A stretch of 64,000 nucleotides of DNA from positions 1 through 64,000 of IMG/VR virus record IMGVR_UViG_3300027914_000334. One strand, 5' to 3'. The stretch is from a virus. Taxonomy: Duplodnaviria > Caudoviricetes. The notes beneath the pieces were generated by a model that had not been told where the DNA came from, searched no databases, and saw only the letters and a program-made list of their open reading frames with translations. The number at the start of each line of letters is the position of its first letter. Within the stretch, counting starts at the first letter, position 1. Of the stretch, positions 1 to 34,128 are shown piece after piece. Position numbers and translations under genes: made by a program.

Positions 1-21
1 TCATAAGCAGTTATATCCTCC

Positions 22-366
22 TTAATGTGTGTGTTTTGTCATTATATCTTTGTGTTGTTTATCTACTTCATGTAACGGTAATTGCATAAACTCACCAATG
101 TTATTAGTGATAACACCGTTCATGATAAACATTTCATTATTTATCATTCCAAGGCAATAACCGTGATCCGCAAGCCATGTTATTCTTTCATATTCTTCCA
201 TCGTGGCTAAGTCTTCTGCTATTTTAGATGGAATAGTTAGATCGTATTTTTTCCATGCGTTATTTACAGGATCGAATCTGAAATTATTGCACGATAAAAA
301 CGATTTAAGCTCATCTTTGGTCATTTCTATTAACTCCTTTGTACGACGACTCTTTCCAAAAAACAA
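22..366 (-). CDS. hypothetical protein (likely start ATG at 324)
   Basis: ORF in minus-strand gene run; AAGGAG upstream of ATG at 324; no recognised domain. Confidence 0.6.
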   Translation of the reverse strand: MFFGKSRRTKELIEMTKDELKSFLSCNNFRFDPVNNAWKKYDLTIPSKIAEDLATMEEYERITWLADHGYCLGMINNEMFIMNGVITNNIGEFMQLPLHEVDKQHKDIMTKHTH

Positions 367-4170: not shown

Positions 4171-4188
4171 TTTTCGACCTCTGAAGTG

Positions 4189-4680: not shown

Positions 4681-4714
4681 AAAATCAATTTCGTGCGATT
4701 AATTGCAAATTTAA

Positions 4715-5245: not shown

Positions 5246-5281
5246 TCAGACATTGTAATTTGAACGATAAAAAATTTGGAA

Positions 5282-5744: not shown

Positions 5745-5753
5745 GAGTTATTT

Positions 5754-7127: not shown

Positions 7128-7137
7128 GGGTATCAAT

Positions 7138-7674: not shown

Positions 7675-7697
7675 CAGACGGCTTTTAACCCAATACG

Positions 7698-7732
7698 AGT
7701 AGCCCGTAATGCCCATATTACGGGCTACTTTT
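7698..7732 (+). terminator. intrinsic terminator
   Basis: AGTAGCCCGTAAT/ATTACGGGCTACT stem plus T run. Confidence 0.8.
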
Positions 7733-7752
7733 CAATCTACAAGGAATCGAAC

Positions 7753-8718
7753 ATGTTACATGCTATAGAGGCTGTTTTCGAGAAATTGGGTATTCAGGGT
7801 AGCTTGTATAAAGGTGGCAGAGAAATCCTTTTCAGGTGTCCATTCCACGACGATCATAAGGCGTCGATGTCAATGAATACAGAAACCACCCAATACCATT
7901 GCTTTTCGTGTAATGCCGGTGGTAGTAGCCTCAAAACCTTTATTGAACGAATAACCGGAGAGAAGATCGACTTTCGGCAATTCGTCAAAGAGGAAGATGA
8001 GCTTATAGCAAAGATCAATACAATATACAAGACCAGTGCAGACAATATTTTATGTTATGAAAACGATGCAGACTTTCAACTTAGATTCAGGGAAGAATTC
8101 TCTAATTTCATTCCTGCAACAAAAAGTGATGTAGCTTATACTTATTTAAAAGACAAGCGAAAGCTTACAGATGTTACTATCAATGCATTTCGTCTCAAGT
8201 ATGCTGTACGTGGAGATTATGAGAGTAGAGTCATAATTCCATATTTTAGTAAGACAACCCTACTTGGTTTCAACTCTCGACTTATTGGAGCTGATAAAGC
8301 ATTTCTCAAAGATTTAAGATATAGATATTTAATCAATACATCAGCATTTAAGGGCTATATATACAACTATGAAAATCTTGTAGGTAATGACTATTGTATT
8401 TTGGTAGAAGGTCCATTCGATCTTATGTGGATGGTTCAGTGTGGATTTAAGAATGTAATTTCAACTCTAACAACAAGGGTTGATTATGAGCATATCTTTA
8501 ATCTAACAAGGTTCAAAAACTTCATATTCTGCTTCGATAACGATGAAAATGAAGCTGGTTACAATGCTGTCATGAAGGCATCAGAGATGATCCACACATG
8601 CCTTCCAGACAGGAATATAATGATGATGACATTACCACCAGAAACAGACCCTAATGAGTGTTCCAAAGAAGTGCTTGAGTTATCGATGAAACGACTAAAA
8701 AGGATTATTTTCGAGTGA
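7753..8718 (+). CDS. DnaG-type DNA primase (CHC2 zinc finger + TOPRIM)
   Basis: CPFHDD...YHCFSC; LVEGPFD; CFDND..G; PETDPNE. Confidence 0.92.
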   Translation: MLHAIEAVFEKLGIQGSLYKGGREILFRCPFHDDHKASMSMNTETTQYHCFSCNAGGSSLKTFIERITGEKIDFRQFVKEEDELIAKINTIYKTSADNILCYENDADFQLRFREEFSNFIPATKSDVAYTYLKDKRKLTDVTINAFRLKYAVRGDYESRVIIPYFSKTTLLGFNSRLIGADKAFLKDLRYRYLINTSAFKGYIYNYENLVGNDYCILVEGPFDLMWMVQCGFKNVISTLTTRVDYEHIFNLTRFKNFIFCFDNDENEAGYNAVMKASEMIHTCLPDRNIMMMTLPPETDPNECSKEVLELSMKRLKRIIFE

Positions 8719-8721
8719 ATC

Positions 8722-8753
8722 GAAAAGCCCCCTGAAATTTCAGGGGGCTTTTC
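8722..8753. terminator. bidirectional terminator between convergent modules
   Basis: Perfect 32-bp palindrome GAAAAGCCCCCTGAAA/TTTCAGGGGGCTTTTC. Confidence 0.85.
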
Positions 8754-8803
8754 TTTGTGAGAGGATTGTGGAGGCAAACAAATCTTCTATTCGTTTACGT
8801 CGT
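8722..8803 (-). ncRNA. candidate ~80-nt small RNA
   Basis: Consensus promoter at 8809-8837 fires directly into the terminator with no ORF between. Confidence 0.45.
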
Positions 8804-8808
8804 AAACG

Positions 8809-8837
8809 ACTATATCATGTCGTTTTTCGTTTGTCAA
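8809..8837 (-). promoter_or_regulatory. sigma70-type promoter
   Basis: TTGACA-17 nt-TATAGT with extended TG; palindrome TCGTTTACG-T-CGTAAACGA at 8791-8809. Confidence 0.7.
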
Positions 8838-9080
8838 CTACCATGACCAAGATTTTTCAACCCACACAGACCCACCATCTTTCTTGTTTATAACAACCGT
8901 TAGATCGTTTTTCTTAAACACGATAGATGGTTCTATCTTAACTTTGCCGTCTACGTTGTAGTAGATTCCCTGCAATTTAAGCCCATCAGACTTAACCTGA
9001 TTAACGGCAGAATGGTTCTGGTTAATTACTTCGTTTCTGAAGGGCTTGAAGTTAAAGACTTGGAATCCGAAATCTTGGCA
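8838..9080 (-). CDS. ATG-less open frame, beta-strand-rich (possible frameshift extension of holin-like gene, or TTG-start small protein)
   Basis: 80 open codons ending ...KIEPSIVFKKNDLTVVINKKDGGSVWVEKSWSW*; fills the gap after the holin-like gene. Confidence 0.4.
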   Translation of the reverse strand, partial: CQDFGFQVFNFKPFRNEVINQNHSAVNQVKSDGLKLQGIYYNVDGKVKIEPSIVFKKNDLTVVINKKDGGSVWVEKSWSW

Positions 9081-9508
9081 TTAACAAGAGCAACCAAGTA
9101 CGACTTAACTGCGGCAGTAATATACTCAAGAACCATATCACCAACCAGATAAGACTTCAGGGTAGCGAGTTCTGGTTTCAGAATCTCCATAGCCTTAGCC
9201 GAAACCTTCGCAACCATGGCGGCTACTTCAGAATCATCAATCTTACCATCCTTGATAGCTTCGACGTATTCCTTGCGGAATACAACATTCTCTGCATCTA
9301 CGAGTGTGCTTACGATAACACCGACCTTCTTAATGGCATCTTTTACCCGCATAGATACCTTTTCTGACTTGATCTTTTCAGAAAGCTTCATAAGGTAATT
9401 GATGATGAATGGCATACATGCCGAAAGAGCAACAAGGAAAAGGATAATCAACACGCCAAGAATGAACAGAGAAGGCTGAGACGAAAGAATAGAAGTAATG
9501 TTTTGCAT
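9026..9508 (-). CDS. holin-like membrane protein (single N-terminal TM + helical domain)
   Basis: Hydrophobic LFILGVLIILFLVALSAC segment; in lysis region; AAGGAG RBS. Confidence 0.55.
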   Translation of the reverse strand: MQNITSILSSQPSLFILGVLIILFLVALSACMPFIINYLMKLSEKIKSEKVSMRVKDAIKKVGVIVSTLVDAENVVFRKEYVEAIKDGKIDDSEVAAMVAKVSAKAMEILKPELATLKSYLVGDMVLEYITAAVKSYLVALVNAKISDSKSLTSSPSETK

Positions 9509-9524
9509 ATATTTCTCCTTTATA

Positions 9525-10145
9525 TTACGGACGCTGAATAATATACTGAGTCCACTTATACTCTTGGTAGAACTTTTCTTCGTAGAAAGACGGCATGAAT
9601 TCCGATGTTACATCCTTGAATCCAGCCTTTTCAAACAACGGAAGCCAAAATCCAGCACCATAGCATGTGATATGAGTAGGATCATCACGATCTTCAAGCG
9701 GCTCGTCGGAATGTCCAAGAGTTGCTAAGTAAAGAATACAACCACGCTTAGAAATCCTGAATAATTCCTTGAATACGGAAGGCAATACGTCTTCTGGAAT
9801 GTGCTCGATTGTTTGTTGACTATGGATGAAGTCAAACGACTTAGTTGCGAAAGGCATCTTATTTGTATATGAGAACAACTTACCTTTCATATTTTCAAAA
9901 GGTGTATTTTCAACATACCAAGGCGAGCAATCAAGCCCAACCATATCAATGCCAGCATCGTTGAACGCCGATGTAGTAGCTCCAAGGGCACAACCAAAGT
10001 CCATAGCTTTTACACCGGGTTTCTTGATATCAGGAAACACCCTAGAAATAAATTCTACATACTGCTTCTGCCAATCGCCTTTACAAGTGAAATCCAATCC
10101 TTGCTTTGTCTTGGAAAATTCAGCATATTCTTTACCAAATTCCAT
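9525..10145 (-). CDS. class I SAM-dependent methyltransferase (paralog of 33423-34127)
   Basis: MDFGCALG motif I, GLDCS, FDFIHSQQTIEHI, DPTH. Confidence 0.85.
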   Translation of the reverse strand: MEFGKEYAEFSKTKQGLDFTCKGDWQKQYVEFISRVFPDIKKPGVKAMDFGCALGATTSAFNDAGIDMVGLDCSPWYVENTPFENMKGKLFSYTNKMPFATKSFDFIHSQQTIEHIPEDVLPSVFKELFRISKRGCILYLATLGHSDEPLEDRDDPTHITCYGAGFWLPLFEKAGFKDVTSEFMPSFYEEKFYQEYKWTQYIIQRP

Positions 10146-10157
10146 TATAATTACTCC

Positions 10158-10694
10158 TTATTTTGGTTCTTCGAACAATTGAATCTTACCATACTTGATA
10201 TCAAGAATGATAGGAAATAAATTCTTACCGGGGCAATCAGTCATCATGAATTCTTTGTGTCCATGAATACATTTTGGAATCTCCAACTGAATAAAAATGG
10301 TTTTAAGATAAATAATAAGTTCTTTGAGAGATTTAATCTGTTCTGGTGTTGGTTTCTCTACTTCAAAATTACCTATAATCATAATACCAATATTTCCGGT
10401 ATTATTGTTTTTTACATGCGCTCCAACAACATCAAACGGCCTACCCTGATAGATATCACCGTTTGGTGCTATTACGGCATGATAACTAATATCCGACCAA
10501 CCTCGACCATTCTGATGAAATGATTGAATTGCACGCATTGTCTTTGCACCTTCAAAGCAATTCAATTGGTGGATATCTGGATATGCGTCTGTTCCACCTT
10601 GATGGTGGACCGTGATTTTCCGAGGGAAATGTTTGATAAATGGAGTTCTAGGGCTTTTAGCCTTCCATTCTTCTCTGGTGATTATTTTGTTCAT
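10158..10694 (-). CDS. endolysin, N-acetylmuramoyl-L-alanine amidase (Amidase_2/PGRP-like)
   Basis: ITVHH, GWSDISYH, GR...GAH, GHKE...TDCPG Zn ligands. Confidence 0.93.
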   Translation of the reverse strand: MNKIITREEWKAKSPRTPFIKHFPRKITVHHQGGTDAYPDIHQLNCFEGAKTMRAIQSFHQNGRGWSDISYHAVIAPNGDIYQGRPFDVVGAHVKNNNTGNIGIMIIGNFEVEKPTPEQIKSLKELIIYLKTIFIQLEIPKCIHGHKEFMMTDCPGKNLFPIILDIKYGKIQLFEEPK

Positions 10695-10944
10695 CTATAC
10701 TCTTCCTTATCTGTAATCGTAAATTTTCTTGAGCTTTAATATCTGCATAATATTCTTTTGCTAATCTTGTAGATTCCTCACAATAACAATCTCCACAGAT
10801 TTGTGTATATTTATTAAATACAAATAACTCTTTTATAATACCACAGACGGAACATTTATGCTTCCAGCCTTGATTATAATCTACCTGAACTTCATTTGAT
10901 TGGTCGATAATATCATCTTGGAATTGATCTGGTAACTTTGACAT
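10657..10944 (-). CDS. small Zn-finger protein
   Basis: CSVC...CGDC; probable start MSKLPD. Confidence 0.5.
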   Translation of the reverse strand: MSKLPDQFQDDIIDQSNEVQVDYNQGWKHKCSVCGIIKELFVFNKYTQICGDCYCEESTRLAKEYYADIKAQENLRLQIRKSIDEQNNHQRRMEG

Positions 10945-11529: not shown

Positions 11530-12027
11530 TTATATGAATATATCTATTAAGACAGAATATAATTTTTGATACCAAGGAGTTATAGATTCTCCTTCTCCAA
11601 CAATATATGCGCACTGAGGCCAACCAGAATTGAATAGCTTTGTAAAATCACTTGGGAGAAATTTTCTAATTGTACCATCCCCATAATGAGCATATATAAA
11701 TTCGTCATTTTCCGCTGAAGATTTTGTCAAAACGATCCAATGTTGGTATAAGTATGGATTCTTGTCAAAATGTATCAGACACATCGTTTTGTTGGATGTA
11801 TAATTTCCAGACAAAATATCATCAATAGTTACCATTTTGTATTTTGTATGTAATTTATCCAACAATGAAAAGTGGTGATATGGCGAATCTTTCAAATTAT
11901 CACGGAAATCGTTGTAATTCTCCCAACCCCAGATATATTTAAGCTCATCATAATCTATCTGTAAAATGAAAGACAATGCACGTATTCCACAATCATATTT
12001 TGTTTTTTGTCTGTATGTTATGGTCAT
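11530..12027 (-). CDS. peptidase C39-like cysteine protease
   Basis: YRQKTKYDCG (Q-x4-DCG) and QHWIVL; ATG at 12027 just past a hairpin. Confidence 0.7.
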   Translation of the reverse strand: MTITYRQKTKYDCGIRALSFILQIDYDELKYIWGWENYNDFRDNLKDSPYHHFSLLDKLHTKYKMVTIDDILSGNYTSNKTMCLIHFDKNPYLYQHWIVLTKSSAENDEFIYAHYGDGTIRKFLPSDFTKLFNSGWPQCAYIVGEGESITPWYQKLYSVLIDIFI

Positions 12028-12034
12028 AAAACTT

Positions 12035-12060
12035 GGGGTGGTAGGAATTCCTACCACCCC
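12035..12060 (-). terminator. hairpin/terminator
   Basis: Perfect palindrome GGGGTGGTAGGAA/TTCCTACCACCCC. Confidence 0.7.
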
Positions 12061-12066
12061 TACTCC

Positions 12067-13062
12067 TTACGCGATTGCTGGTGGTTGTGAATCCGGAGCC
12101 GTGATATTTGGCTTTTGTTCTCTTTCAATTGCCTTCATCATTGAGTCTACGATCATATTGGATTTGAACTTCATACATTTGGCATTGAAAGGACACTTCC
12201 AAAGTTGGTCGTTTCCTACAAAGTCAAAGAGATAAGTATCTGGTCTTCCACAATGTAGATTGTTGCAAGCGTTTCCAACATCGAGATTGTTATTCTCAGA
12301 ATATCCAAGATTTACAGGACTCGTACCACCCCAAAGAACAACAGCATCCTTCTTACCAAGAGCCGCCCAAGCATGTTGGGCAAATGAGTCAATGAACAAC
12401 CCATGCTGGCACTTGTTAATAATGGCAAACAGATATCTCGCAGGAACTACCTGATTATTGAAAAGCTTGCTAATCGGAATAGCGTTCTGCAATTCCTTCT
12501 CGGAAGGAAGACCAATCTGGATAACACCAACACCCTTCTGAACAAGAGCCGTTACGATTTCCTGAGCAACATCATAAGGAAGATCGCGATAATGCTTCAT
12601 GCGAGTAGGATCATTTGCAGAATTTGGATCGTATAAAGAAGTACCACCGACATACTGGAAAGCAACCATAGGACGGTCGATTTTAAGCTGAGTCCAGATT
12701 GTATCAGCTACATTCTTTTCCTGCTCGTCTACAACGATAATACCATTCTTGCTCTTAGGAAGATCAAGACCAAGTTTCTGACACCATACATCTACGATAT
12801 GAGCTTTCTTATTTCTATAGTCATAATCAAGGTATGGCTCTGCTTCTAACACTTCAAAGTTCTTATGCTCGTCATAGAAATAAGGAACGGCCTTCAAAGG
12901 GAATACACGATCAACGAAATCAAGACCTACGAATACATCTGGATAGGAGCATTGAACGTGAATCTTGGCATCTGGGTACTTGTATCGAATCTGCTTTACA
13001 ACGGCAGTTGCGTTGATATTTCGACCAAGACCACCACCAGTACGAAACAGAATTTCCTTCAT
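12067..13062 (-). CDS. GT-B glycosyltransferase, GT9/heptosyltransferase-like
   Basis: GGLGRNI..TAV, YPD, IDSFAQHAWAALGK..VVLWGGTSP..LGY, C-terminal Cys cluster (ACNNLHC...CPFNAKCM). Confidence 0.8.
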   Translation of the reverse strand: MKEILFRTGGGLGRNINATAVVKQIRYKYPDAKIHVQCSYPDVFVGLDFVDRVFPLKAVPYFYDEHKNFEVLEAEPYLDYDYRNKKAHIVDVWCQKLGLDLPKSKNGIIVVDEQEKNVADTIWTQLKIDRPMVAFQYVGGTSLYDPNSANDPTRMKHYRDLPYDVAQEIVTALVQKGVGVIQIGLPSEKELQNAIPISKLFNNQVVPARYLFAIINKCQHGLFIDSFAQHAWAALGKKDAVVLWGGTSPVNLGYSENNNLDVGNACNNLHCGRPDTYLFDFVGNDQLWKCPFNAKCMKFKSNMIVDSMMKAIEREQKPNITAPDSQPPAIA

Positions 13063-13099
13063 AGTTAATCTCCATTTATTTTAAAATTATTCAGAAACA

Positions 13100-13134
13100 A
13101 GACAAGGGTATACCACAAGTGTATACCCTTGTCT
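13100..13134 (-). terminator. hairpin/terminator
   Basis: AGACAAGGGTATAC/GTATACCCTTGTCT stem followed by TGTTT on minus strand. Confidence 0.7.
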
Positions 13135-13143
13135 ATATGTTAA

Positions 13144-13491
13144 TTACAGAACATCAACGGCTCCAGAATAGTCTGGAAGAGACTTCACATACAGATAGAT
13201 CGCCTTCTTAACTACATCATCAAGAGTCTCACCTTCCGAAGCTGTAGGAATAGTAAGCTTGGAAGATTCAACGGAGAAAGGCTTGGAATTAACCCTCTTC
13301 AAACGTTGATCGTGAGGGGCTGGTTGATAATTCTCAGTCTCAGAATCCCTAGATTCCTTATCTGGATATGTAACAATGTCGAAATTAACCTTAGAACCTT
13401 CTATATGGACGTTATTAAGCTTAAAATAAGCATTTTCGAAGTTGAAATAGAGATTGTTATTTTCTCGCGAACTGAGCATCTTAAAACCCAT
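13144..13491 (-). CDS. tail-fibre-associated small protein (paralog of 13503-13844)
   Basis: F..AY.K, YP...SR, K.A.Y...K...D pattern shared with neighbour; downstream of fibre gene. Confidence 0.6.
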   Translation of the reverse strand: MGFKMLSSRENNNLYFNFENAYFKLNNVHIEGSKVNFDIVTYPDKESRDSETENYQPAPHDQRLKRVNSKPFSVESSKLTIPTASEGETLDDVVKKAIYLYVKSLPDYSGAVDVL

Positions 13492-13502
13492 AATATTTCT
13501 CC

Positions 13503-13844
13503 TTAAATTAAATCAATTCCTTGAGTCATGTCGATATAAACATTGGATGTTTTATTTATACATAAATTACTTTGCTTTTTCAACCAGTTATATGCTGCTT
13601 GTTTAATTCCATTCTTAGAAAAATCAACAAGTATTACTTCATTCAAAGGAACAATGATTGTCTTTTTAAGAATACTACAAGCACCTGTAGTATTTCTTGA
13701 ATCGGCAGAAGGATATCCGTTTAAATAAATCCACATCTCTTCATGCTCTGCTCTAATATCTACCTGAGATATTTTTAGATAAGCTGATTGAAATGGAAAC
13801 TTGATATCATTCTGCTCTTTTGTCAGAGAAATCTCAATAGCCAT
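13503..13844 (-). CDS. tail-fibre-associated small protein
   Basis: FPFQSAYLKI, YPSADSR, KQAAYNWLK; paralogous to neighbour. Confidence 0.6.
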   Translation of the reverse strand: MAIEISLTKEQNDIKFPFQSAYLKISQVDIRAEHEEMWIYLNGYPSADSRNTTGACSILKKTIIVPLNEVILVDFSKNGIKQAAYNWLKKQSNLCINKTSNVYIDMTQGIDLI

Positions 13845-14397
13845 GACACTTTACCACCTTCAAGTGAATTTCTATGGAGTTTACCACGTTATTATAGGTA
13901 CGTATAGCCATATCTAATTCATTTTGAGAAATCTTTCCAGAGAAGAATCGCTCTCTCCAATACGGATCAAGGTTATATTTAGCATAAATTTGTTTGAAAT
14001 TAATATTATAATCCAATCCAAGTGTTGAGTTTGAATATTTTTCACATTTACAGTAATTATTAAATGATTGATCGAAAAGAGAGAAAGTAGCCATTGTAAT
14101 ACATCTTACATGGGTTGGATCGGACTTAAAATCATCGTGATTATAATGAGGAACTATAATTTCAATAAATGCATCTGGTTTGCAGACTCTATAAATCTCT
14201 TTGAGTATATTAATAAATTGTTCTGGAGTTTGTCCTAGATGTTCAAGAACATGAATAGCTTTAATCTCATCAACTGAATTATCTTCAAAAGGCCAAGGAG
14301 TGACGTTCAAATCATGTTTAACATCAGGATTACCAGAAATATCAACATTTACATAACCATCTAATAACTTATTACCACAACCAAGATGTAATTTCAT
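13834..14397 (-). CDS. SAM-dependent methyltransferase (type 11-like)
   Basis: KLHLGCG, VNVD, DL...WPFEDNSVDEI...HVLEH, EIYRVCK, DPTHVR. Confidence 0.88.
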   Translation of the reverse strand: MKLHLGCGNKLLDGYVNVDISGNPDVKHDLNVTPWPFEDNSVDEIKAIHVLEHLGQTPEQFINILKEIYRVCKPDAFIEIIVPHYNHDDFKSDPTHVRCITMATFSLFDQSFNNYCKCEKYSNSTLGLDYNINFKQIYAKYNLDPYWRERFFSGKISQNELDMAIRTYNNVVNSIEIHLKVVKCHGY

Positions 14398-14409
14398 ATT
14401 AATACCCCT

Positions 14410-17400
14410 TTATTGTAATTTTGCTTCCAATGCAGAAAGACGATTATTTATACAATCAGTTAACGAACAAATGCAAGCTTTTAAGTCAGTAACGCAAGTA
14501 TCAAGTTCTTGTGCTGCTTTGAGTGCTATGCCATCAACAGGATATAAGTTGTCATTTTCAAATCTAAGTTTCCAAGCTTCTTGAACATCTTCAGCCACCG
14601 GTCCTATGAATTCATCATGTGTCAAATTATTATTATCTGTAAATGTCCATTTTTGAATTTTTATTGTTCTAAGACCATTCAACACATCTATATCTTCAAA
14701 ATTAGTCTTAATAGCCCTAGTAGATGCAGTATTCCATGCAGTATTACCACCACCAGAAATACCATTTACAACAACGGCATACATTCCATAGCAACATGTA
14801 GCTGTAAAATAACCACCATAACAACAAGCGCAACCATATACACCATATAAACAAGTAGCGCAACCATATACACCCGAATTAGCAGCTCCACCATAAGTAC
14901 CATAACTCCCGGCAGAAACTCCACGAACACCGTAATTCGTAGTAGCATACCCACAAACACCATAATTGTCAGCATATCCATATAATCCAACCCATTTAGC
15001 TTGTGATCGTATCCCCATTCCAAGACATGTGCATGTATTACAGAATATAGCAACATAGCAATTACACATTCCATTACATACACATAAATTATTACAAATC
15101 CAAGTCGATGTAGTACTACCACCTATCATCCACGATCCAGCACAATCAAGAATACCAAATGCATTACTATTTGTTCCATATATAGCACCCAACAAACAAC
15201 CACTACATGAATAAAATCTATGGTAAGCATAACTACAATTACCACTTCTTATATACAAACCACATGCATCTGCTTGGCATATTCTATTATTGGATATGTA
15301 TATATCTGGACTGTAAAATATATCTTGAACTTGCAGACACCCATAAACATAAGTACATTCACCCGTGCATCCACCACAAAGATAAAGAACAGCACCAGTA
15401 TCATTCTTTATACCACCACGCGCCATCATTAAATTCCGAGCATAAAAAGTCCCGCCGTTTACATACAAACCACCGGGCATTATCGTGTATGAGGCTGCAC
15501 AAATATATGGATTTGCACACGCAAAACATAACAGAGAATTTTTCAGTTCAAATTGTCCACATGCATATGCTCTGTTAATAGAATAATCAAATTTAATACA
15601 CGCAGAACATGTTGTTAATGTATTATATCCACAAAGACCATTTTTACTCATACAATTTATACAATAAGTCGAACCACAAATATATGCCGTTATAATTATT
15701 CCATCTATTACACTAGAAGTATTATATCCAGCACATGCGGTAAATCCTTTAGCATAAATATTAGCATAACCATTACAAATTCCATTGTAGAATATATAAC
15801 GACATATAGGACAACTGCCTTTACTACCACGGTAATTAATATATAACGCTCCTGTTGAACAATATCCATATGCTATAGTTGTTTCATTTCCATGTTCAAC
15901 ACATTTGGTTACATTATAATTAGATACCAAACTTCCATCATATTTCGCTATTCTATACCATGTATTCCATGTATTACAATTACATGCAATTCTCATCCAG
16001 ACATTACCATTGTCTGTAAAGCCAAGTTGCATTGGCAAACCACCACTCATATCACATCCAGAACCATACTTTCTAATAGTCATCACTCCTGAGTATGTTC
16101 CACCATCTGATAATCCGGCGCATGTATTTGATATGAAAGACAAGTAGATACCACCGGGACAATGATATGGTAACAATACACAATTTCTAATATCTTGATA
16201 ATAAACGTAACAAGAACCACCATATATTGTTCCACAAATACCATTCGGAATAATAACAGCACCAGAAGCACAAATATATGGATTTGCTTTTTCCCAATAA
16301 AGACCACAATTATCTAAGCACATTCTTGTAACACCAGCACAACACCACCATATACAGTGACTACAATAAAAACTATTTGCATTACTACCAGCAGTAGTAT
16401 ATAGCCATAAATGTCCTCTCCACATAGTAGCTTCACAACAAGATTGGTCTATATAAGGTAATTTTTTACGATCTATTGTAGATATGAAACCATCAGATAT
16501 ACTACTACTACATACACCATTTATACAACAATAACACAAACACGTACAGCATAACATACAATAACAACATGATGAAAAATTAATAGACGATGGGTATAAT
16601 AACGCACAATAATGATAAAATAATCCACATGCACTATCACTAGTTGGGTAATAAACCCTACATAAAAATAACTGTTGTTCTCCTGAAGCATTTGTAAATT
16701 CTGATTTGCCTATTTGATACATAGACCCACTATAATTTGTGCATATATACATATCTATACCTGTATTATTTATACAAAAATATGAATTTGCATTACATGA
16801 ATAAATACCACAAGCATTAATATTAAACGCGGCAATACAACCAGAACATGAACATAATGCTCCACCGAACGTACCGGCTGTAGCACAGATAGTTCCCTTC
16901 AATACAAGATCACAACCATCAAAATACAAATTAGGATTGCAATCACCACCAAGTTTTATAATCCCGGTTGTTAAATCTATACAGGTTCCACAATTATCTC
17001 CCCAATTGGAAGACTGAAGAAGTCCACCAAAGATATTACCGTTATTTGTCCACAAACCATATCCAGAAAGTCCTGCAATACCAGAAAGATTCCCAAGTCT
17101 TACCTGCGGTGTTAAGCAACACCATGGACATGAACCATTGGTGAATATATCTATAAATGGACTATTACTTCCTTGTCCGTTTAAAAGAATGGCCCCGGAT
17201 GTATTGGTAGCTGGTCCATAATTAGCAACAGCAATTCCGGATGGAACAGTACTCGAAGCATTTCCACTCATTAATTGAACGCAATAGGAGTAATACCCGG
17301 TACACGCAGTAGAACTTACTACTTTAACCCACATTTCGCGTATACCAGAACTATTAAACGTTTTGATTCTTAATATATCATTATTTGCAAAAACTATTCC

Positions 17401-20400
17401 GATTCCGGCTGGACTATTTTTAATACACAATATATTACAAGCATTTAGCGCAGGACTTGTCCAGCAGTTTGCAAGAATACCTGCTTCTGCCACTATCATT
17501 TGACCGCCAATAGCAGTTATTTCGTCATATGCAAATACACTTGATCTTAGTTCTCCACGAACAATTACGTTATTAAATTCAGAGTTGCCATAACAGTTAA
17601 TACACCATCCACGAAGACCGCTTACGAAATCAGATGTATAAATGGCACCACTGGAATTTATTGTTATATTATTTCCATAAATGCACGTTTCGTTAAAATT
17701 CCACCCAGCTATTGTAGCGCATAATGCGCTACCACAACTGTTGGTATGAACTTGGAATATTGTGTTCGATGCTGTATTTACTATAATTCCAAATCTACCA
17801 GAAAGGTAGGAGTAATTATAATTCATCAAACAATTACCAATGGTTATATTAGAGGCAACAGTATAATTACACAAAGAAGCTAAGAATATTCTTGGATAAT
17901 AGGAATCTAGTTCTATTGCTCCGTAACCATTATAACTACCAAGCCAATTTGAACAGATGCACCAACCGGCTATTTTACCATCCGTGCTACAAATAGTTCC
18001 TGAAATCGTTGCATTTGATGCATAAAGATTTCCGGTGTTTGTAACTCTAAATGGTGCTAATGTAGGTGTAGAACAACCAGCATAAAATGAAACAGTTCCA
18101 GCAGTAGCACAAGAATCCATTCCAACATTTCCAGAATAGAGATTAGTAGCACCAATGCACCATCCACCGATATGACCTGTGCAAGCACATACATATCCAG
18201 CGATACAGGCGTTTTGCGCTGTCAATGCTCCTGTAGCAGAATCAAGTTGGAAATTCTTTACAGCACCGTTCCATCCTTCGATACCAGCGGCAGTAATCTT
18301 AATACCAGAAACACAACCATCACCAGCATGGCAAGCTGTTCTAATGTCCTTACCTACGATCTGTTGTGATGTAATAGTTTCTGATGTAATAGCACCAGCG
18401 ACTATATCCTTTGTGTCAATCTTCATAGGAACAACCATAGAAGACCAAGAAGAATATGCGCTTGCGTTGTTGCTATTATCAAATGCCTTTACACGATAGA
18501 ACCAACAACTATAAGCATTATCTGGTTGTATATCGCTATATAGTTGCGTTTTAACATGGTCATTTAATACTGTAATATGAGCTAAATCTGGCGCACCGTC
18601 TACTGCGATTGCTCTTTCTACAGAGAAATGATTGAAGTCAGCAGGAATACCACCAGTTATATTTATAAGTAATGAAGCACCATTTATAATGCTTTGTGCA
18701 GTAACCGTAGGAAGACCGGGGGCTGATAAGTCACCTGTAATCGTAAGATATGTTTCAGCACCGGGCTGGCCTTTATAGTGAGTATCACCAGCAGAAATAG
18801 CTATTGGTGAATAAACACCTGTTGGTGATAACGTAACAGCACGAATGTAATAATTACCAGATTCTTTATCCCATATATAACTATGAGTTCCAGATGTAGC
18901 CATCTGGGTAAAGTATTCAAAGTTCGCATCTCCAACTTTCTTTCTGAAAAATACCACATATTGAGCATTTGAAGTTGGTTTTGTTGCTGTAAGATTTAAT
19001 GTTACCTGTGTAGTTCCATCTGTTCGTATACTTGCACTCGCTGTAACATTAAAATTTGTAGGCTTTGCAGGAATAGCATACATAGAAGGAGGAACAACTG
19101 GAGTTGGATATGTGATAGAAATAGCAGTATAGTCGTAAACTGTAGCATCGTATTCTTTAAGCTTTAATACAGTCTTAGTATCAGATTTTGACATTTCCAC
19201 AACAGTAAATGATTTATAAGTCCATAAGAATTTTGGAGCATTTACCAATACAACCTTACCAATATCCAGAGAATCTGGAATATCAACTTCGGTCGTTATA
19301 GTAACTGTTTTAAGTTGATTGAGCTTTTTCTTAAAATAATACTGTCCCAATCTAGCCGCAGTAACTTCGTCTTGAACAAGAGGAAGCTCAATCTTATCAT
19401 TGTTCCATTTATTTATTCTAAGAGCATGGGTTGAATTTTCTGTATAAATGGAAGCGGGGTCTGGAATCTTGTCATACTTTCCAGTTTCATGATTTCTACC
19501 AAATTCAACTTTTAATCTGTTAATTTGTTGAGACAAATCTGGTTCGTTCCAAGGTTCTACTATACAATGATATCCATTTTCGCCAGTCTCATCGAATGTT
19601 GCAACTGACGCCCCTCTTGCTTTATCGATAGAAAGGGTATATTTCCCATTTTCTTCTGTGAAAATACCACGACATGATTTAGCAAGCTCATCAACCCATT
19701 CTCTTCCTTCTTGTCGAGTATTTATAATGCCATCTACTTTGAATCCAAGAGCGGCACTATCTATAATGGCTTGAGTGCAATCTACAAGAGATACAGGAAT
19801 ACCAAGCCCCCAACCATTCGGCCCACCACCACTTATATTTCTTGCCGTAGTTGGGTTTGTAAGCAACCAATATGCTAATTGCGCTGGATTTCTTTCTGCA
19901 TCTGTTCTACCGGAATTTACGATACCTGACACATCAACAAATACTTCTGGGTCTGTATTGTCTGTCATTTGTGGCTTAACGGGATCGCCAGTGACCGCAT
20001 CGTAAAATTCGATATATGCCATACCGGGGTAAACAGAAGTATGGCTACCAAATTCATCAGTCACAGTTTCCAGAGAACCACCCCAACCTTTGCCTTTGAA
20101 AATACGCACCTTTATACCGTTGGAGTTTATGTCTGGACTATAACCATTAACTACAGGATTTGCATCTCCGTCATAAATAATTTCTGTATCAAAATACACT
20201 TTATGAACTTTGTATATTTCACCACTACCAATTCCATAGCGATGATAAACATAGTCAAAAGGAATAAGCTTATGGCGTCTTGCAGTTCCGAAAATAATAG
20301 GCACAGCATCCCAAGAATCATTGATACCCATATCTGAGTAATAATCATAAGCGATTTGCTCGTCTGGGATTGGCTGTGCCAAATATGGCAAAATACTTTC

Positions 20401-20736
20401 GGTTACTGTGATATCTATTTCCAGACCGAAAGAATTTATCTTTTCAATAGTTCCGTAAAATTTCTTTGAAGCTGTATCACCAGCACCAAAATAAACGGTA
20501 ACAATTTGATTCAAAAGCCCATAAGAAGTTTCCAGAGTTGTAAAAAAGTTATCTCTGTTATCTAATTTAAGATTTAGACTTCTTGCTTGCGAACCAGATT
20601 TCTCTGTATCAGAAAATATACGATTAAGACTAACGCCATTTACAAGTCTAGGTTCCCAATATTTATCGGCATAATCTAACGCTGAATCTGAAAAATAATA
20701 CGTCGTTGCATTTACAACTAATTCAACACGTATCAT
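14410..20736 (-). CDS. tail tip/central fibre protein with Cys-rich distal region and C-terminal S74 intramolecular chaperone
   Basis: N-terminal hub-like region (VPIIFG, RNPA), Fn3-like repeats, G.IAGW fibre motifs, C-terminal STRAIK...IGPVAED + coiled coil; about 114 Cys counted by hand from residue 802 onward. Confidence 0.85.
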   Translation of the reverse strand: MIRVELVVNATTYYFSDSALDYADKYWEPRLVNGVSLNRIFSDTEKSGSQARSLNLKLDNRDNFFTTLETSYGLLNQIVTVYFGAGDTASKKFYGTIEKINSFGLEIDITVTESILPYLAQPIPDEQIAYDYYSDMGINDSWDAVPIIFGTARRHKLIPFDYVYHRYGIGSGEIYKVHKVYFDTEIIYDGDANPVVNGYSPDINSNGIKVRIFKGKGWGGSLETVTDEFGSHTSVYPGMAYIEFYDAVTGDPVKPQMTDNTDPEVFVDVSGIVNSGRTDAERNPAQLAYWLLTNPTTARNISGGGPNGWGLGIPVSLVDCTQAIIDSAALGFKVDGIINTRQEGREWVDELAKSCRGIFTEENGKYTLSIDKARGASVATFDETGENGYHCIVEPWNEPDLSQQINRLKVEFGRNHETGKYDKIPDPASIYTENSTHALRINKWNNDKIELPLVQDEVTAARLGQYYFKKKLNQLKTVTITTEVDIPDSLDIGKVVLVNAPKFLWTYKSFTVVEMSKSDTKTVLKLKEYDATVYDYTAISITYPTPVVPPSMYAIPAKPTNFNVTASASIRTDGTTQVTLNLTATKPTSNAQYVVFFRKKVGDANFEYFTQMATSGTHSYIWDKESGNYYIRAVTLSPTGVYSPIAISAGDTHYKGQPGAETYLTITGDLSAPGLPTVTAQSIINGASLLINITGGIPADFNHFSVERAIAVDGAPDLAHITVLNDHVKTQLYSDIQPDNAYSCWFYRVKAFDNSNNASAYSSWSSMVVPMKIDTKDIVAGAITSETITSQQIVGKDIRTACHAGDGCVSGIKITAAGIEGWNGAVKNFQLDSATGALTAQNACIAGYVCACTGHIGGWCIGATNLYSGNVGMDSCATAGTVSFYAGCSTPTLAPFRVTNTGNLYASNATISGTICSTDGKIAGWCICSNWLGSYNGYGAIELDSYYPRIFLASLCNYTVASNITIGNCLMNYNYSYLSGRFGIIVNTASNTIFQVHTNSCGSALCATIAGWNFNETCIYGNNITINSSGAIYTSDFVSGLRGWCINCYGNSEFNNVIVRGELRSSVFAYDEITAIGGQMIVAEAGILANCWTSPALNACNILCIKNSPAGIGIVFANNDILRIKTFNSSGIREMWVKVVSSTACTGYYSYCVQLMSGNASSTVPSGIAVANYGPATNTSGAILLNGQGSNSPFIDIFTNGSCPWCCLTPQVRLGNLSGIAGLSGYGLWTNNGNIFGGLLQSSNWGDNCGTCIDLTTGIIKLGGDCNPNLYFDGCDLVLKGTICATAGTFGGALCSCSGCIAAFNINACGIYSCNANSYFCINNTGIDMYICTNYSGSMYQIGKSEFTNASGEQQLFLCRVYYPTSDSACGLFYHYCALLYPSSINFSSCCYCMLCCTCLCYCCINGVCSSSISDGFISTIDRKKLPYIDQSCCEATMWRGHLWLYTTAGSNANSFYCSHCIWWCCAGVTRMCLDNCGLYWEKANPYICASGAVIIPNGICGTIYGGSCYVYYQDIRNCVLLPYHCPGGIYLSFISNTCAGLSDGGTYSGVMTIRKYGSGCDMSGGLPMQLGFTDNGNVWMRIACNCNTWNTWYRIAKYDGSLVSNYNVTKCVEHGNETTIAYGYCSTGALYINYRGSKGSCPICRYIFYNGICNGYANIYAKGFTACAGYNTSSVIDGIIITAYICGSTYCINCMSKNGLCGYNTLTTCSACIKFDYSINRAYACGQFELKNSLLCFACANPYICAASYTIMPGGLYVNGGTFYARNLMMARGGIKNDTGAVLYLCGGCTGECTYVYGCLQVQDIFYSPDIYISNNRICQADACGLYIRSGNCSYAYHRFYSCSGCLLGAIYGTNSNAFGILDCAGSWMIGGSTTSTWICNNLCVCNGMCNCYVAIFCNTCTCLGMGIRSQAKWVGLYGYADNYGVCGYATTNYGVRGVSAGSYGTYGGAANSGVYGCATCLYGVYGCACCYGGYFTATCCYGMYAVVVNGISGGGNTAWNTASTRAIKTNFEDIDVLNGLRTIKIQKWTFTDNNNLTHDEFIGPVAEDVQEAWKLRFENDNLYPVDGIALKAAQELDTCVTDLKACICSLTDCINNRLSALEAKLQ

Positions 20737-20747: not shown

Positions 20748-21533
20748 TTATACTATTTCTTCAAACGTAAAAGACTTGCTTTTTATATCAGGTCTTTCTA
20801 TATCAAACGAAGTTTCATCCTTCATAGGTCTAACAAGATATGCTTTAGTATTATCACTAAACATATCTAAAAACAATACAATTTCTGAATATGTTGTCTT
20901 TGCTAAGTCGAATGTTGTAGCGGCTACCTTATCCCAACTTCCAGTAAAGGAACGCTTTGTACGACCAAGAACATATCTATTCACATAACCACTATTATAT
21001 TCTACATCAGAAATCTTTGGAATATATGCAATTCTAAATCCAGATTTTGGATTCCATACTTCTGTATATGTTCCTACATACATATTCCCTATCTTGAAAT
21101 ATGTATTGTCAAATAAAGGAATCTGTGCTGGTATTACAACTTTTAAATATTTGAATGATACAGTTCCTAGATCGACGAAATAATGCATATAATTTTCGTC
21201 TTCTATCTCATCTCTGGTTATTCCACTTACTTCTTCGATCTTAGTATATGTAATGTCGTCATTACTAATATATACATCAAATGCAGCAAAGTTAATTCTA
21301 TTCAAGAATAATCCAGTATGAGAAACAGCAGTACTCCCAAAATAATATTTAACCCATGATTCTGTTATAACATTATTAGATTTCCACGCTCTAGTTGGGT
21401 CTTTGTATTTAAGATTTGAAGATGGAAAGCTTGCATGTGAGGATGAAGCGGTTATAGTTATTCCAGAATCATTTTCAGAATAAGGACGATAACCAGTGGT
21501 ATTTCTTGAACTGTATTTATACATTACTTTCAT
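20748..21533 (-). CDS. distal tail protein with galactose-binding/discoidin-like fold
   Basis: Between tape measure and tip; ASSS...NL...AWKS...WV, SND..Y, FKYLKV pattern. Confidence 0.6.
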   Translation of the reverse strand: MKVMYKYSSRNTTGYRPYSENDSGITITASSSHASFPSSNLKYKDPTRAWKSNNVITESWVKYYFGSTAVSHTGLFLNRINFAAFDVYISNDDITYTKIEEVSGITRDEIEDENYMHYFVDLGTVSFKYLKVVIPAQIPLFDNTYFKIGNMYVGTYTEVWNPKSGFRIAYIPKISDVEYNSGYVNRYVLGRTKRSFTGSWDKVAATTFDLAKTTYSEIVLFLDMFSDNTKAYLVRPMKDETSFDIERPDIKSKSFTFEEIV

Positions 21534-21544: not shown

Positions 21545-24500
21545 TTACTTCATTATACCAAGAAGCTTCTTCTTCAGGGCTTCTATAAGTGTTGCGGCGT
21601 TAGGATCGTTCTTAGCGATAAGGTCACGAATCTGATTAGCTATATTCTTAGCTTCTTCATTATTAATATTTCTCATATCGATAAACACAGTATCACCCTT
21701 TGCAGTATTGCGTTCTTCTGCAATTCTCATCTGAAGTGTCTTATCGATAGATTCTAACATATCAAGCCAAGCATCATTAACTTCCTGAGTCTTATCCTTG
21801 ATATGTTGTTGTTGTTCGATTTGAAGATTAAGAAGTTCCATCTGTGCAGAGTACCATTCTTCGGTTCCAGATTCAAGATTTGTGATCTTTGTTTTGGTTG
21901 TAGCTATCTGGAAGTCATACCAAGCTTGCCATGGATCACCAGTTTTATTTACTGTGCTAATCATATCAGTATACATACTTCCTATTGCAGTATTAACCTT
22001 AGTAGTTCCAGAAAGGGTATATCCTATACCAGACATATTTTTAATTCCAGAAAGTACATTCAAAGCATCCGTTTTATCCAAATCCTTTAATGAAGAGAAA
22101 GCATCCAATTTGAATTGTTGTTTTAATATTAACGAAGTAACTTCTTTGAATTTTGTTTCCATAGCACTAAGAGGTAAATTTACAATATTCTTAATATCTT
22201 TCGTTACAAACCCACTATTTATCCAATTTTCAGCTTGTTCGGCTACAGACTCATACATTCCAGCTATATCATTGTTGGTACTAGCCAGTAACTCCTGTAA
22301 TGAATCCCAAAGTTCTAAGTCAGCACCTTCTAAATTATCATGATTTGTTACACCTCTAAATTTATTAGCTATTGTCGTTTCTATTTGAGATTTTTGATTG
22401 AACATAAGTTCATAATTATCAAAATTCTTAGTAGTATCATTAGTATACAAGTTAGCCATTCTATATTTATATTCATTTTTAAGACCCATTACATTTGCTT
22501 CGTTATTACCATGTGTAATTAGTTCATTAATACGAGCATTTACATCATCTATATTGTTAGAAAATAATTTTTTATATGTAAGTTTAACAGAATCCCATAT
22601 TTTATCTCCAACACTACTATTACCAACACCAAGAATCTTGGATATTGTAGTGGCATTACCACCAGCCTTCTGAATAGCAGCATATTGTTCTGGTGTTATA
22701 GTAGCACTGCCATTCTTAGTTTCTCCGGGAATTGTTGCCCAATATTTCCAAAACCAGAATCGTTTTTGAACTCTCTGTGGATTATTAACCAGTGAATAAT
22801 TGGTATCGTATCCAGAAACCTTGCCATATTTTTCCATCTTCTGAGAATCTGTCATACCAAGATCGGAAAGATATGGATTAACACTTGCCGTAGCATTATA
22901 GTATCCATAATATCCACTTCCCTTGTATGCAAGACTTCTATTGTTAAGCATAGAGATACTAGAAGTGTTCATAGCACGTTTAACATCTTGTGCTTGATTC
23001 TTTGCTGCATCGGCAAGTTCTTTTGTAGCTGTAAGATATTCTATTTGGGCATCATACCATTCCCTTGAATTCTTTGTTAACTTTGACATATTATTGGCTT
23101 TTTCAGAAATACCTATCTGCATCTCAGTAAACGAAGAATTACCACCATATATATAATTTTCGTAACGTCTTTTAGACATAGACGTTGCCATCTTCTCAGC
23201 ATCTATTTGATCCATTAAGTCTGCTATTTCATTTGCGGTTTCATATACAGTATCTCTAAATTTATCAATAGTTTCTCTGTCATTATTTTTCAATGCAGTT
23301 TGATATATACTATCTATCTGACTCTTATAATTAGATTTAATTTTAATCTCTTCCTGAAGACCTTGTAAGTTATATTTTTCTTTTAATTTGTCAATACGTC
23401 TTGTGTTTTCATAATGCTCTTTGGCAGCAGTATTGAGTAATTGATAATATTGCTTCATTGAATTATAAAATGCAGTAGAGTCCGAAGCGGCATGTTTCTC
23501 CTTCGGCCCCTTCCATCCAAGGAATCCACCACCAGAATTCCACGTTCTAAACCCTATTTCGTCGAATCCAAATCTAGCAATTGTTCCATATTTGGAAGAC
23601 ATTTTATATTTTTCTGCATCATCGAAACGACGATTTACATAACCAGTTCTCATTTCGGTATCATTGGCATATTGTTGTTGGGCGGCACCTGTTTTATCTT
23701 TAGTTCCACCGAACAGACGACCGGGTTGTGTAAGGAAGCTTATAGCGGCAGCAGCAGGAAGTACCCAAGGATTACTAGCAAGGAAACCACCTTTACCAGC
23801 AAACGAATTCCACAATTTCGTAACAGTACCAGTTTTACCGAATAATTTAGCACCTGTCATCGCTTTACTAACAGCACTAGCACCAAAATTTCCAGCAACA
23901 CCCATCATTAAGCTTTCGGTTATTCCATTTCCAACAGACCCAACGCCGGGAATCATACCACCACCAGCAAGAGCCATAGCAGTTCCGATAGCTGGTTTAT
24001 TAACAGCGATGTTATTAAGAACACCACCCATATACTTAGGGCTTGCATTCGCACCAACGCCACCAGAGCCACCACCGAATACCGAAGGAAGAATGGTCTT
24101 AGCTAATCCACCAAGTAATCCACCACCTGTAAACGAAGACTGTCCTTGTGCATTTACATCTACACCAAGTACAATCTTCATGGTTTGTAACGCAAGCATC
24201 TTAGCAATTATCTTTACGATTTCATCGCGGATAGATACACCAATTTGCTTGAACATATCTCCAAGAGTATGAATCTTCATAGTCATGAAGTCGAAGAAAC
24301 CAGTTTCAAAGGCAGATGTCATCGAATTTACAAGATCATATGCTCCCTGCTCCATTATCTCAGAGAAGTTCTTCCATTCATTTACAGCACGACCAATACC
24401 AAGAGCGAATGAATCACCAAGAGCCTGTGGTTCCATTTCAAGGCGACCCTGCATAGCAGTAAACCAAGCACCCTTGGCTTCCCTATTAAGACCGGCCATT

Positions 24501-34127: not shown

Positions 34128-34128
34128 A

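Follow-up and report, generated by a model that had tools for sequence, protein, structure and literature searches.

A cysteine-rich tail fibre and the genes that follow it were analysed in a 64-kb stretch of DNA from an uncultured tailed phage (hereafter the window), which corresponds to positions 1-64,000 of the 106.7-kb IMG/VR record IMGVR_UViG_3300027914_000334; the record is about 86% complete. It was found that the distal part of the fibre is crowded with Cys, and that a glycosyltransferase-like protein (GT) of GT9 fold, encoded downstream of it, belongs to a family whose genes recur beside Cys-rich fibres. We tentatively interpret the locus as a conserved phage module that modifies its own receptor-binding fibre, the Cys thiols being the likely acceptors, and put this interpretation somewhat below an even chance.

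The locus (11530-20736) forms the minus-strand end of the tail operon. The gene order along that strand is fibre, methyltransferase, small protein sm1, small protein sm2, GT9-fold protein and C39-like protein, followed by a holin-like gene and an Amidase_2 endolysin. An earlier note on this DNA had correctly stated the order from the fibre to the C39-like protein, and all of these open reading frames (ORFs) are co-oriented and closely spaced. Loci and contigs compared with the window are designated by L-numbers and homologous proteins by P-numbers.

Architecture and cysteine content of the fibre

The fibre ORF (14410-20736, minus strand) encodes 2,108 amino acids (aa), among them 118 Cys that are distributed very unevenly over three parts. 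Residues 1-800 (18337-20736, minus strand), a lambda-J-like central tail fibre/tail-tip part assigned to phrog_31, contain 4 Cys. The distal shaft and tip, residues 801-2004 (14725-18336, minus strand), contain 110 (9.2%), and the last 104 residues, a putative S74-type intramolecular chaperone (residues 2005-2108 and the stop codon, 14410-14724, minus strand), contain 4. The skew claimed in the earlier note, 114 Cys in residues 801-2108 as compared with 4 in residues 1-800, was thereby confirmed. In the remaining phage proteome Cys accounts for 1.67% of the residues; at this background about 20 Cys would be expected in residues 801-2004, against the 110 observed (binomial p ~1e-45).

Judged by its sequence matches, the N-terminal part belongs to the central tail fibres of lambda J type. 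Residues 282-1068 matched phrog_31, "central tail fiber J" (E 1.4e-25), the fibre homologues P0071 and P0075 carry PF13550 Phage-tail_3 and PF24801 FNIII-A_GpJ, and the J-type homologues come after Phage_tail_L and NlpC/P60 genes. The C-terminus matched PF13884 Peptidase_S74 at E 2.2e-4 and 21.9 bits, just under the cut-off of 22, and also the tail-fibre C-termini phrog_1980 and phrog_6921. The motif STRAIK, a Ser-x4-Lys dyad (S2005/K2010), is found at the start of the S74-type domain, which probably cleaves itself at Ser2005.

The shaft is rich in Gly, Ser, Asn, Ile, Ala, Tyr and Thr and has few charged residues; Ser and Thr together still account for 16%. Motifs usual in fibres, of the G-x-I-x-G-W-x-I type, occur in it with Cys at the Thr/Ser positions, and so do dense runs of the CC, CxC and CxxC types, one stretch of 22 residues holding 12 Cys. 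A periodic Cys repeat was rejected, the Cys-Cys spacings being broad with only a mild excess at 2-3 residues. An alternative genetic code or a phage tRNA-Cys was also rejected as the origin of the Cys, since residues 1-800 are Cys-poor, the ORF is open in this frame only and no tRNA genes were found in the window. In the region adjoining the 118-Cys fibre, the 2,695-aa tape measure (21545-29632, minus strand) has zero Cys. Among the remaining ORFs of the genome that encode 100 aa or more, only one is strongly Cys-rich; it encodes 267 aa with 20 Cys (7.5%) and lies outside the window (G000:C1:91886-92689, minus strand).

The GT9-fold protein and its family

The 331-aa protein encoded at 12067-13062 (minus strand) gave no PF01075 match at E ≤ 0.1 and no NCBIfam match. 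Neither for this protein nor for the C39-like one was anything significant obtained from sequence only (Pfam, NCBIfam, phmmer and profile searches against PDB sequences), so both calls needed AlphaFold2 (AF2) models. The GT model, built from a 52-sequence alignment, reached a pLDDT (predicted local distance difference test) of 94.8. Comparison with GT9 structures in VIA-align gave a Z of 25.3 for 3tov (root-mean-square deviation 2.6, 273 residues aligned), 22.7 for RfaF (1psw), 22.4 for TibC and about 20 for WaaC; non-GT9 enzymes of the GT-B fold gave Z ≤ 11.5, and Foldseek gave an E value of 5e-12. As modelled, the protein is of GT-B fold and closest to the solved GT9 structures. The GT9-like assignment made in the earlier note was in this way upheld by the predicted structure, and the C-terminal 4-Cys cluster that it had described was confirmed.

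Alignment of the 52 sequences with Escherichia coli WaaC (hhalign) paired R159 with K192, D225 with D261 and H230 with H266, the WaaC residues being the donor-binding ones of the GT9 C-lobe. Among 144 family representatives D225 was found in 140, S226 in 141 and H230 in 142, and R159 was almost invariant. The first loop has the form G-G-[LMF]-G-[KR], with K or R at position 14 in 47 of the 52 aligned sequences and in 131 of the 144 representatives (K 125, R 6, D 2). GT9 enzymes have G-D in this loop, with the catalytic Asp at the start of helix 1 (D13 in WaaC, D110 in TibC). By alignment, then, Lys or Arg occupies the catalytic-Asp position in more than 90% of the family. The phage encodes a second GT9 (34129-35166) that keeps G-D, which indicates that the Lys substitution is specific to the fibre-linked enzyme. 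The Cys of the C-terminal cluster (C266, C271, C290 and C296) are located before the C-terminal helix and near-invariant in the 52-sequence alignment; all four were kept in only 64 of the 144 members of the wider family, and the cluster was given no weight as a sign of a protein substrate.

The family is large. A hidden Markov model search of 1.84 billion representatives returned 274 clusters (50% identity) at E ≤ 1e-30 and 955 at E ≤ 1e-10. Pfam has no model for this family, a few fused members reaching 22-26 bits against the PF01075 cut-off of 22. Fused forms were P0112, P0137, P0144, P0149, P0155, P0163, P0176, P0177 and P0207; three of them are fusions to GT25 (P0149, P0155 at 1,169 aa, and P0176), two are fusions to FkbM methyltransferases (P0144 and P0177), and P0112 and P0207 carry unidentified extensions. 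The fusions to GT25 and FkbM speak for a role of the family in glycan synthesis, with methylation as a step that repeatedly goes with it. With its predicted GT9 fold, conserved donor residues and fusions to glycan enzymes, the protein looks like an active glycosyltransferase.

Alternatively, the GT9-fold protein may be no transferase but an assembly factor or chaperone that holds the thiol-rich strands or delivers metal via its 4-Cys site, and the C39-like protein would then be its partner. The absence of the canonical catalytic Asp would agree with such a role, GT9-fold proteins can be non-enzymatic, as in the case of the plant NDH subunit that was also among the fold matches of the model (Z 18.7-19.7), and the iron finger of TibC contacts the beta-helix of its substrate (PMC4358343). 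However, the donor-binding residues D225, S226, H230 and R159 have been almost invariably retained across the 144 representatives, the family is fused to other glycan-building enzymes, and about half of it lacks the 4-Cys site. We consider a purely non-enzymatic role very improbable.

Co-occurrence of the GT with Cys-rich fibres

The earlier note had proposed that neighbouring fibres be examined for Cys enrichment. GT homologues were collected from protein, viral, genome and metagenome collections, their flanks were read and the set was collapsed to 25 lineages at 90% identity, for 15 of which the contig includes an upstream ORF of 300 aa or more. Each ORF was scored by its densest 100-aa window. 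The nearest large upstream ORF had 10-19 Cys per 100 aa in 13 of the 15 lineages. In L002 the Cys-rich ORF is the next one further upstream, which raises the count to 14 of 15, and L029 is intermediate with 6. Among the other large same-strand ORFs at the GT loci, 40 out of 42 had no more than 7 Cys per 100 aa and many had zero (Mann-Whitney p 1.7e-7). The loci span J-type siphoviruses, a contig (L006) whose portal gene is of P22 type and whose adaptor gene is of SU10 type, and phages about 120 kb long.

The same association was approached from the fibre side, with shaft residues 801-2000 as query. The homologues retrieved were five that are Cys-rich (3.2-5.1% Cys) and seven that are Cys-poor (0-0.8%). 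The GT gene lies just downstream of the Cys-rich fibres L026, L020 and L022, and no GT was found in the flanks read around the Cys-poor fibres L023, L024 and L025. The proposed check was consequently positive in both directions, the fibre-first comparison resting on small numbers, and this two-way co-occurrence of genes speaks for a functional connection of the GT with the fibre. L024 and L025 are recoded phage contigs, the genes of which translate properly only with TAG read as Gln.

Distant GT homologues without the 4-Cys finger were found in deposited phages. In Prochlorococcus phage P-SSM2 (L019) the homologue PSSM2_307 is located among tail-fibre-like genes. Directly upstream of it are PSSM2_304 and PSSM2_306 (L019 6967-8037 and 8766-9833), paralogous proteins of 356 aa with 36 Cys each (10%), and directly downstream are genes for a phosphoheptose isomerase, a sugar kinase, nucleotidyltransferases and an epimerase. 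This gene context supports heptose as the sugar and would extend the Cys link to a T4-like phage. Judged by eye, PSSM2_304 and PSSM2_306 resemble glycine-rich fibre-tip domains with Cys where Gly is expected. As P-SSM2 is a cultured phage, the question can be tested directly in the laboratory.

The proximity of the two genes could also be explained by a GT that acts, together with the methyltransferase, on glycans of the host envelope (such as lipopolysaccharide (LPS) core or capsule), perhaps masking receptors during infection or altering the lysing cell. Its place beside the fibre would then reflect the fact that the slot between fibre and lysis genes commonly hosts accessory genes, fibre and GT being inherited as a block. 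GT9 enzymes are classically LPS heptosyltransferases, members of the family are fused to GT25 "LPS biosynthesis" domains, the GT lies near the lysis cassette, and fibre segments are mosaic and shared between loci. Nevertheless, action on the envelope predicts no Cys-rich neighbours, and the linkage to them recurs on unrelated phage backbones and at varied positions relative to the lysis genes (L006, P-SSM2). The enzymes are moreover 96-100% identical in sister phages with diverged fibres, a pattern that fits, without proving, a conserved tool acting on a changing substrate. An envelope target was therefore regarded as decidedly unlikely.

Placement and turnover of the cysteines

When the fibre of the window was aligned with Cys-poor homologues, its shaft Cys corresponded mainly to Thr, Ser, Ala and Gly. 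In a set of 13 fibres, Cys rose by 5.9 points and this was offset mostly by losses of Ser (-3.2) and Thr (-1.6), so that the sum of Ser, Thr and Cys stayed at about 22-26%. In three fibres Cys showed the strongest beta-strand alternation of all residues. Aliphatic residues around Cys were enriched at +/-1 and depleted at +/-2, as was likewise the case for Thr and Tyr. The residue pattern places the Cys on the non-aliphatic face of beta-strands.

The sister phage L026 allowed their turnover to be followed. With the window it shares 96-100% identity in the GT, the C39-like protein, the holin-like protein, the amidase and the methyltransferases. In contrast, its fibre (3508-10875; 2,455 aa) is 66% identical over the first 1,289 residues and rearranged or mosaic further on, and both the F5/8-type-C protein encoded upstream of the fibre (window 20748-21533) and sm2 are only about 65% identical. 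From these comparisons the fibre region looks like a rapidly diversifying host-range block between conserved flanking genes. In the collinear part of the two fibres (801-1295), 14 of 30 Cys were conserved (47%), as compared with 59% of all residues and 82-91% of Gly, Trp and Pro; where Cys changed, it was mostly to Thr, Ser or Ala. Fixed disulfide or metal ligands normally rank among the most conserved residues. A Cys conservation below the residue average suggests that the Cys are interchangeable surface positions, and the pattern as read from the alignment is more readily reconciled with numerous redundant sites at the surface than with fixed positions for disulfides or metal.

These data bear on the main rival to Cys modification, namely that the GT glycosylates the fibre on Ser/Thr (O-linked) and that the Cys form a disulfide lattice after lysis or bind metal, in either case stiffening and stabilising the long fibre. 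The bacterial autotransporter heptosyltransferases (BAHT) modify Ser (PMC4358343), and the shaft has retained enough Ser and Thr (the 16% given above) to offer such acceptors. Disulfides of the tail fibre and baseplate in cyanophage Pam3 (PMC9942802) provide a precedent for the structural role, and the CC, CxC and CxxC runs, including the 12 Cys in 22 residues, look like cross-linking or metal-binding sequences. O-linkage would leave unexplained, however, why the GT tracks Cys-rich and not merely Ser/Thr-rich fibres, and why the Asp base that activates hydroxyl acceptors has been lost. The 47% conservation is low for structural ligands as well, although a statistical lattice could tolerate such turnover. 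On balance this explanation appears unlikely, though not strongly so.

The C39-like protein

The gene at 11530-12057 (minus strand) encodes a stand-alone C39-like papain-fold protein with a C-terminal hydrophobic helix, 175 aa long if translated from GTG and about 165 aa from the ATG at 12027. In several homologues the protein begins at the residue corresponding to Met11, and the sequence comparison indicates that the ATG at 12027 is probably the true start. The AF2 model had a pLDDT of 81.7, residues 1-13 of the GTG-started ORF falling below 50. The best Foldseek matches were the C39 domains of PCAT1 (7n87, E 1.8e-5, template modelling (TM) score 0.59), ComA (3k8u, 5xe8), HlyB and LahT, with top TM scores of 0.55-0.59. 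The profile search of this protein against PDB sequences gave nothing. The putative catalytic Cys (C23) was found in all 17 homologues that cover the position, H106 in 19 of 19 and Asp or Asn at position 127 in 19 of 19. The C39-like call of the earlier note was thus borne out by the predicted fold together with Cys23, His106 and Asp(Asn)127, and the protein is, on its model, clearly a papain-fold Cys/His/Asp enzyme.

It does not appear to be a canonical C39 peptidase. The match to PF03412 was weak (13.8 bits against a cut-off of 22), although a neighbour by ESM features, like this weak match, points to C39; Gln17, at the oxyanion position upstream of the Cys, is replaced by Met in 13 of 19 homologues; no ATP-binding cassette (ABC) transporter was present at the GT loci read, and no double-glycine leader could be read in the sequences of sm1 or sm2. 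In the homologue from L004 the C-terminal hydrophobic helix is clearly transmembrane-like. In seven of the loci read (L002, L004, L007, L009, L012, L015 and L026) the C39-like gene directly follows the GT gene, and this fixed position favours a role in the GT pathway.

Small proteins and methyltransferase

The recurring set across loci consists of the Cys-rich fibre, then an sm-family protein, the GT and, in the seven loci named above, the C39-like protein. The 113-aa sm1 (13503-13844, minus strand) represents a family that directly follows Cys-rich fibres and has no Pfam or PHROG match; its homologues occur right after the fibre in L002/L010, L006/L011, L005 and L021. The 115-aa sm2 (13144-13491, minus strand) is an N-terminal paralogue of sm1, with homologues in L005, L004, L002 and L009. 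The paralogy of the two small proteins suggested in the earlier note held, but it is limited to the N-terminal 52 aa (29% identity, E 3e-6). In its divergence sm2 goes along with the fibre, with 65% identity to the sister phage as compared with 96-100% for the enzymes, which suggests that it is a physical partner of the variable fibre part.

The gene at 13834-14397 (minus strand) encodes a 187-aa class-I S-adenosylmethionine (SAM)-dependent methyltransferase, with a partial match to Methyltransf_11 (E 1e-6) and a match to phrog_6636 (E 9e-18). The SAM methyltransferase assignment of the earlier note therefore stands. The gene is 96% identical in the sister L026 and has no homologue in the other GT loci; it is confined to the closest relatives of the window and lies outside the conserved module. 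By analogy with the GT-FkbM fusions elsewhere in the family, the enzyme may methylate the sugar.

Two hairpins were detected by pattern match only. The first, with a 14-bp stem (13100-13134, minus strand), lies in the 81-nt gap between sm2 and the GT and overlaps a promoter-like site. The second is GC-rich, with an 11-bp stem containing 8 GC pairs (12035-12060, minus strand); it is located between the GT stop codon and the ATG at 12027 and overlaps the GTG-started N-terminal extension of the C39-like ORF. The two hairpins may split the cassette into separate transcription units.

Comparison with known systems

The closest parallel is offered by the BAHT enzymes (TibC/TibA, Aah/AIDA-I; PDB 4RAP/4RB4), which hyperglycosylate beta-helical adhesins (PMC4358343). 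The GT of the window shares with them a GT9-type GT-B catalytic domain (269 residues aligned with TibC at the Z of 22.4 given above), a four-Cys cluster inserted just before the C-terminal helix, and a gene position adjoining that of a long, repetitive, beta-rich surface protein; multi-site modification in the cytoplasm is putative for the phage. In TibC the iron-finger Cys are residues 339, 342, 358 and 370, ahead of the C-terminal helix (PMC4358343), with a spacing of C-x2-C-x15-C-x11-C, against C-x4-C-x18-C-x5-C in the window GT. The latter also lacks the N-terminal beta-barrel (TibC 1-97), residue 1 of the model aligning with TibC residue 94, so that it starts at catalytic strand 1. Asp110 of TibC is replaced by Lys/Arg in the phage family, the putative substrate is a Cys-rich fibre instead of a Ser-rich autotransporter, and sequence identity between the enzymes is only 12-14%. 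WaaC/WaaF and other GT9 enzymes (PDB 2H1H, 1PSW, 3TOV) gave the best structural matches (Z 20-25), and the donor-binding motif is conserved. Unlike them, the window GT has neither a PF01075 match nor the Asp13 base, and its gene belongs to a phage tail module rather than to an LPS core operon.

To our knowledge, glycocins are the sole well-established case of enzymatic Cys S-glycosylation in bacteria. SunT-like peptidase-transporters represent a class that carries C39 peptidase domains. In glycocin clusters (SunS/SunT, PalS/PalT) a Cys-containing substrate, a glycosyltransferase and a peptidase of the papain-like class, part of a SunT-like peptidase-transporter, are encoded together (PMC6405829), as is putatively the case in the window. 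The differences are considerable. SunS-type enzymes belong to GT2 and have a GT-A fold, whereas the window GT model and all its strong matches are GT-B. The glycocin peptidase is part of an ABC transporter and cleaves a leader peptide, whereas the C39-like protein stands alone; and glycocin substrates are small peptides with one or two glycosylated residues, as compared with a fibre of about 2,000 aa and more than 100 Cys.

Virion glycosylation has been reported for the cluster F1 mycobacteriophages Che8 and Rita (Freeman et al. 2023, cited in PMC11256854), where phage-encoded glycosyltransferases decorate virion proteins. According to that citing account, the targets are major capsid proteins and the enzymes are different ones, and it describes no Cys-rich substrate. 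In Pam3, disulfides hold tail fibres and baseplate together (PMC9942802), which demonstrates a structural role for Cys in tail proteins; they amount to a handful of mapped bonds, as opposed to about 110 Cys per chain at poorly conserved positions in the window fibre. Protein heptosylation by GT9 enzymes (PMC4358343), S-glycosylation of bacteriocins (PMC6405829) and glycosylation of virions (PMC11256854) are thus each already known. A literature search for Cys-rich phage fibres with a glycosyltransferase, S-glycosylation in phages and glycosylated tails returned nothing relevant, in agreement with the impression expressed in the earlier note that no phage system of this form has been described.

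Weighing of the evidence and proposed mechanism

Several points weigh against modification of the fibre on Cys. The composition, the folds, the conserved residues and the genomic linkage have been shown; that a sugar is placed on the fibre at all, which sugar it is and on which residue it sits are inferred. The S-glycosyltransferases known to us are GT2 enzymes of the GT-A fold, not GT9, and we know of no GT9 or GT-B enzyme that forms S-glycosides. The equivalence of Lys14 and WaaC Asp13 was derived from topology and alignment ranges (model 2..314 with WaaC 1..322), not from residue-level superposition. The two other Cys-rich fibres retrieved with the shaft, L021 and L027, have no GT within the available downstream DNA (5.4 kb and 1.8 kb, respectively), as O-linkage with structural Cys would allow, and an adjacent GT is for this reason not demonstrably obligatory for a Cys-rich fibre. 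Since Cys-rich fibre segments are mosaic and common to several loci, part of the linkage could be co-inheritance. It is weaker among distant homologues, that of Pelagibacter phage HTVC111P following a tail fibre of 1.5% Cys and that of marine virus AG-345-L05 being without any Cys-rich neighbour. The C39-like gene borders lysis genes and the fold of its product also resembles pseudomurein endoisopeptidase (Foldseek), which makes a lytic role possible. As regards the sugar, no SIS/GmhA domain for heptose synthesis was found in the 106.7-kb record, and the search of the genome collection for a host returned only two contigs of metagenome-assembled genomes, both phage-like.

In spite of these points, the GT probably acts on the fibre, as is supported by its genomic linkage, its intact donor site, the domain fusions in the family and the example of the BAHT enzymes. 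As to the acceptor, Cys would be more economical than Ser/Thr, because the catalytic Asp is changed to Lys/Arg, Cys replace Ser/Thr in the shaft and the enzyme tracks the density of Cys, not that of Ser/Thr. The rapid turnover of Cys at beta-strand positions agrees with this as well. An S-linkage of the sugar to the fibre Cys, the mass S-glycosylation suggested in the earlier note, is nonetheless doubtful at present. The fullest form of this idea, an unannotated branch of the GT9 fold that acts as protein S-glycosyltransferase and puts heptose or another sugar on dozens to hundreds of Cys per fibre chain with the C39-like protein as dedicated partner, should similarly be taken as speculative.

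A module that modifies the fibre on Cys might work as follows. The fibre would fold in the reducing cytoplasm, where the GT9-fold enzyme would bind a nucleotide sugar made by the host, most likely ADP-heptose, and transfer the sugar repeatedly to the shaft, in the way that TibC and Aah modify the beta-helices of autotransporters. The likely acceptors would be Cys thiols, because the Asp base is replaced family-wide and the family travels with Cys-rich fibres; the sugar caps would in addition shield the thiols against oxidation once the cell has lysed. The C39-like protein would probably serve as a processing or editing peptidase of the same pathway and the sm proteins as fibre-specific partners, the methyltransferase being a lineage-specific extra.

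If the fibre is decorated, this would represent a novel strategy by which phages construct and protect the organ of host recognition, and a second, chemically different example of virion glycosylation beyond the mycobacteriophages. If the sugar is on sulfur, enzymatic S-glycosylation would extend from a few small bacteriocins to large structural proteins, with a new enzyme fold; as far as we know, it would be the first S-glycosylated virus particle, the first S-glycosyltransferase of GT-B fold and by far the densest S-glycosylation. Sugars linked through sulfur are resistant to glycosidases and to hydrolysis, and such enzymes would consequently be useful for the preparation of stable glycoproteins. 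Irrespective of the linkage, annotation of the GT family would affect many phage genomes (the 274 or 955 clusters that have no Pfam model).

Other features of the genome

The GC content of the window is about 35%, and it encodes a Gp23-like major capsid protein and a siphovirus-type tail tube in addition to the tape measure. No close relatives were found among the deposited phage genomes by tblastn of the Cys-rich shaft and of the C39-like protein (50,697 records).

A second modification cassette adjoins the major capsid gene (33423-35776, minus strand). It comprises a class-I methyltransferase (33423-34127, minus strand), the second GT9 (34129-35166, minus strand; PF01075 E 2.4e-7), which has the canonical G-D motif and a CxxC...C...C tail, and a 207-aa protein resembling the N-terminal half of that GT9 (35153-35776, minus strand). 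Decoration may accordingly extend to the head of the phage, in addition to its fibre.

A polysaccharide pyruvyl transferase (PF04230, E 1.7e-9) is encoded between the terminase and portal genes (41784-42818, minus strand), and a homologous domain was found in the unrelated GT-carrying phage L002 (13058-14077), between lysozyme and amidase genes. A second class-I methyltransferase of the window (9525-10145, minus strand; phrog_22502) comes immediately behind the amidase endolysin, which is an unusual place for such a gene; it is 98% conserved in the sister phage, and the L026 copy matches Methyltransf_23/11/25.

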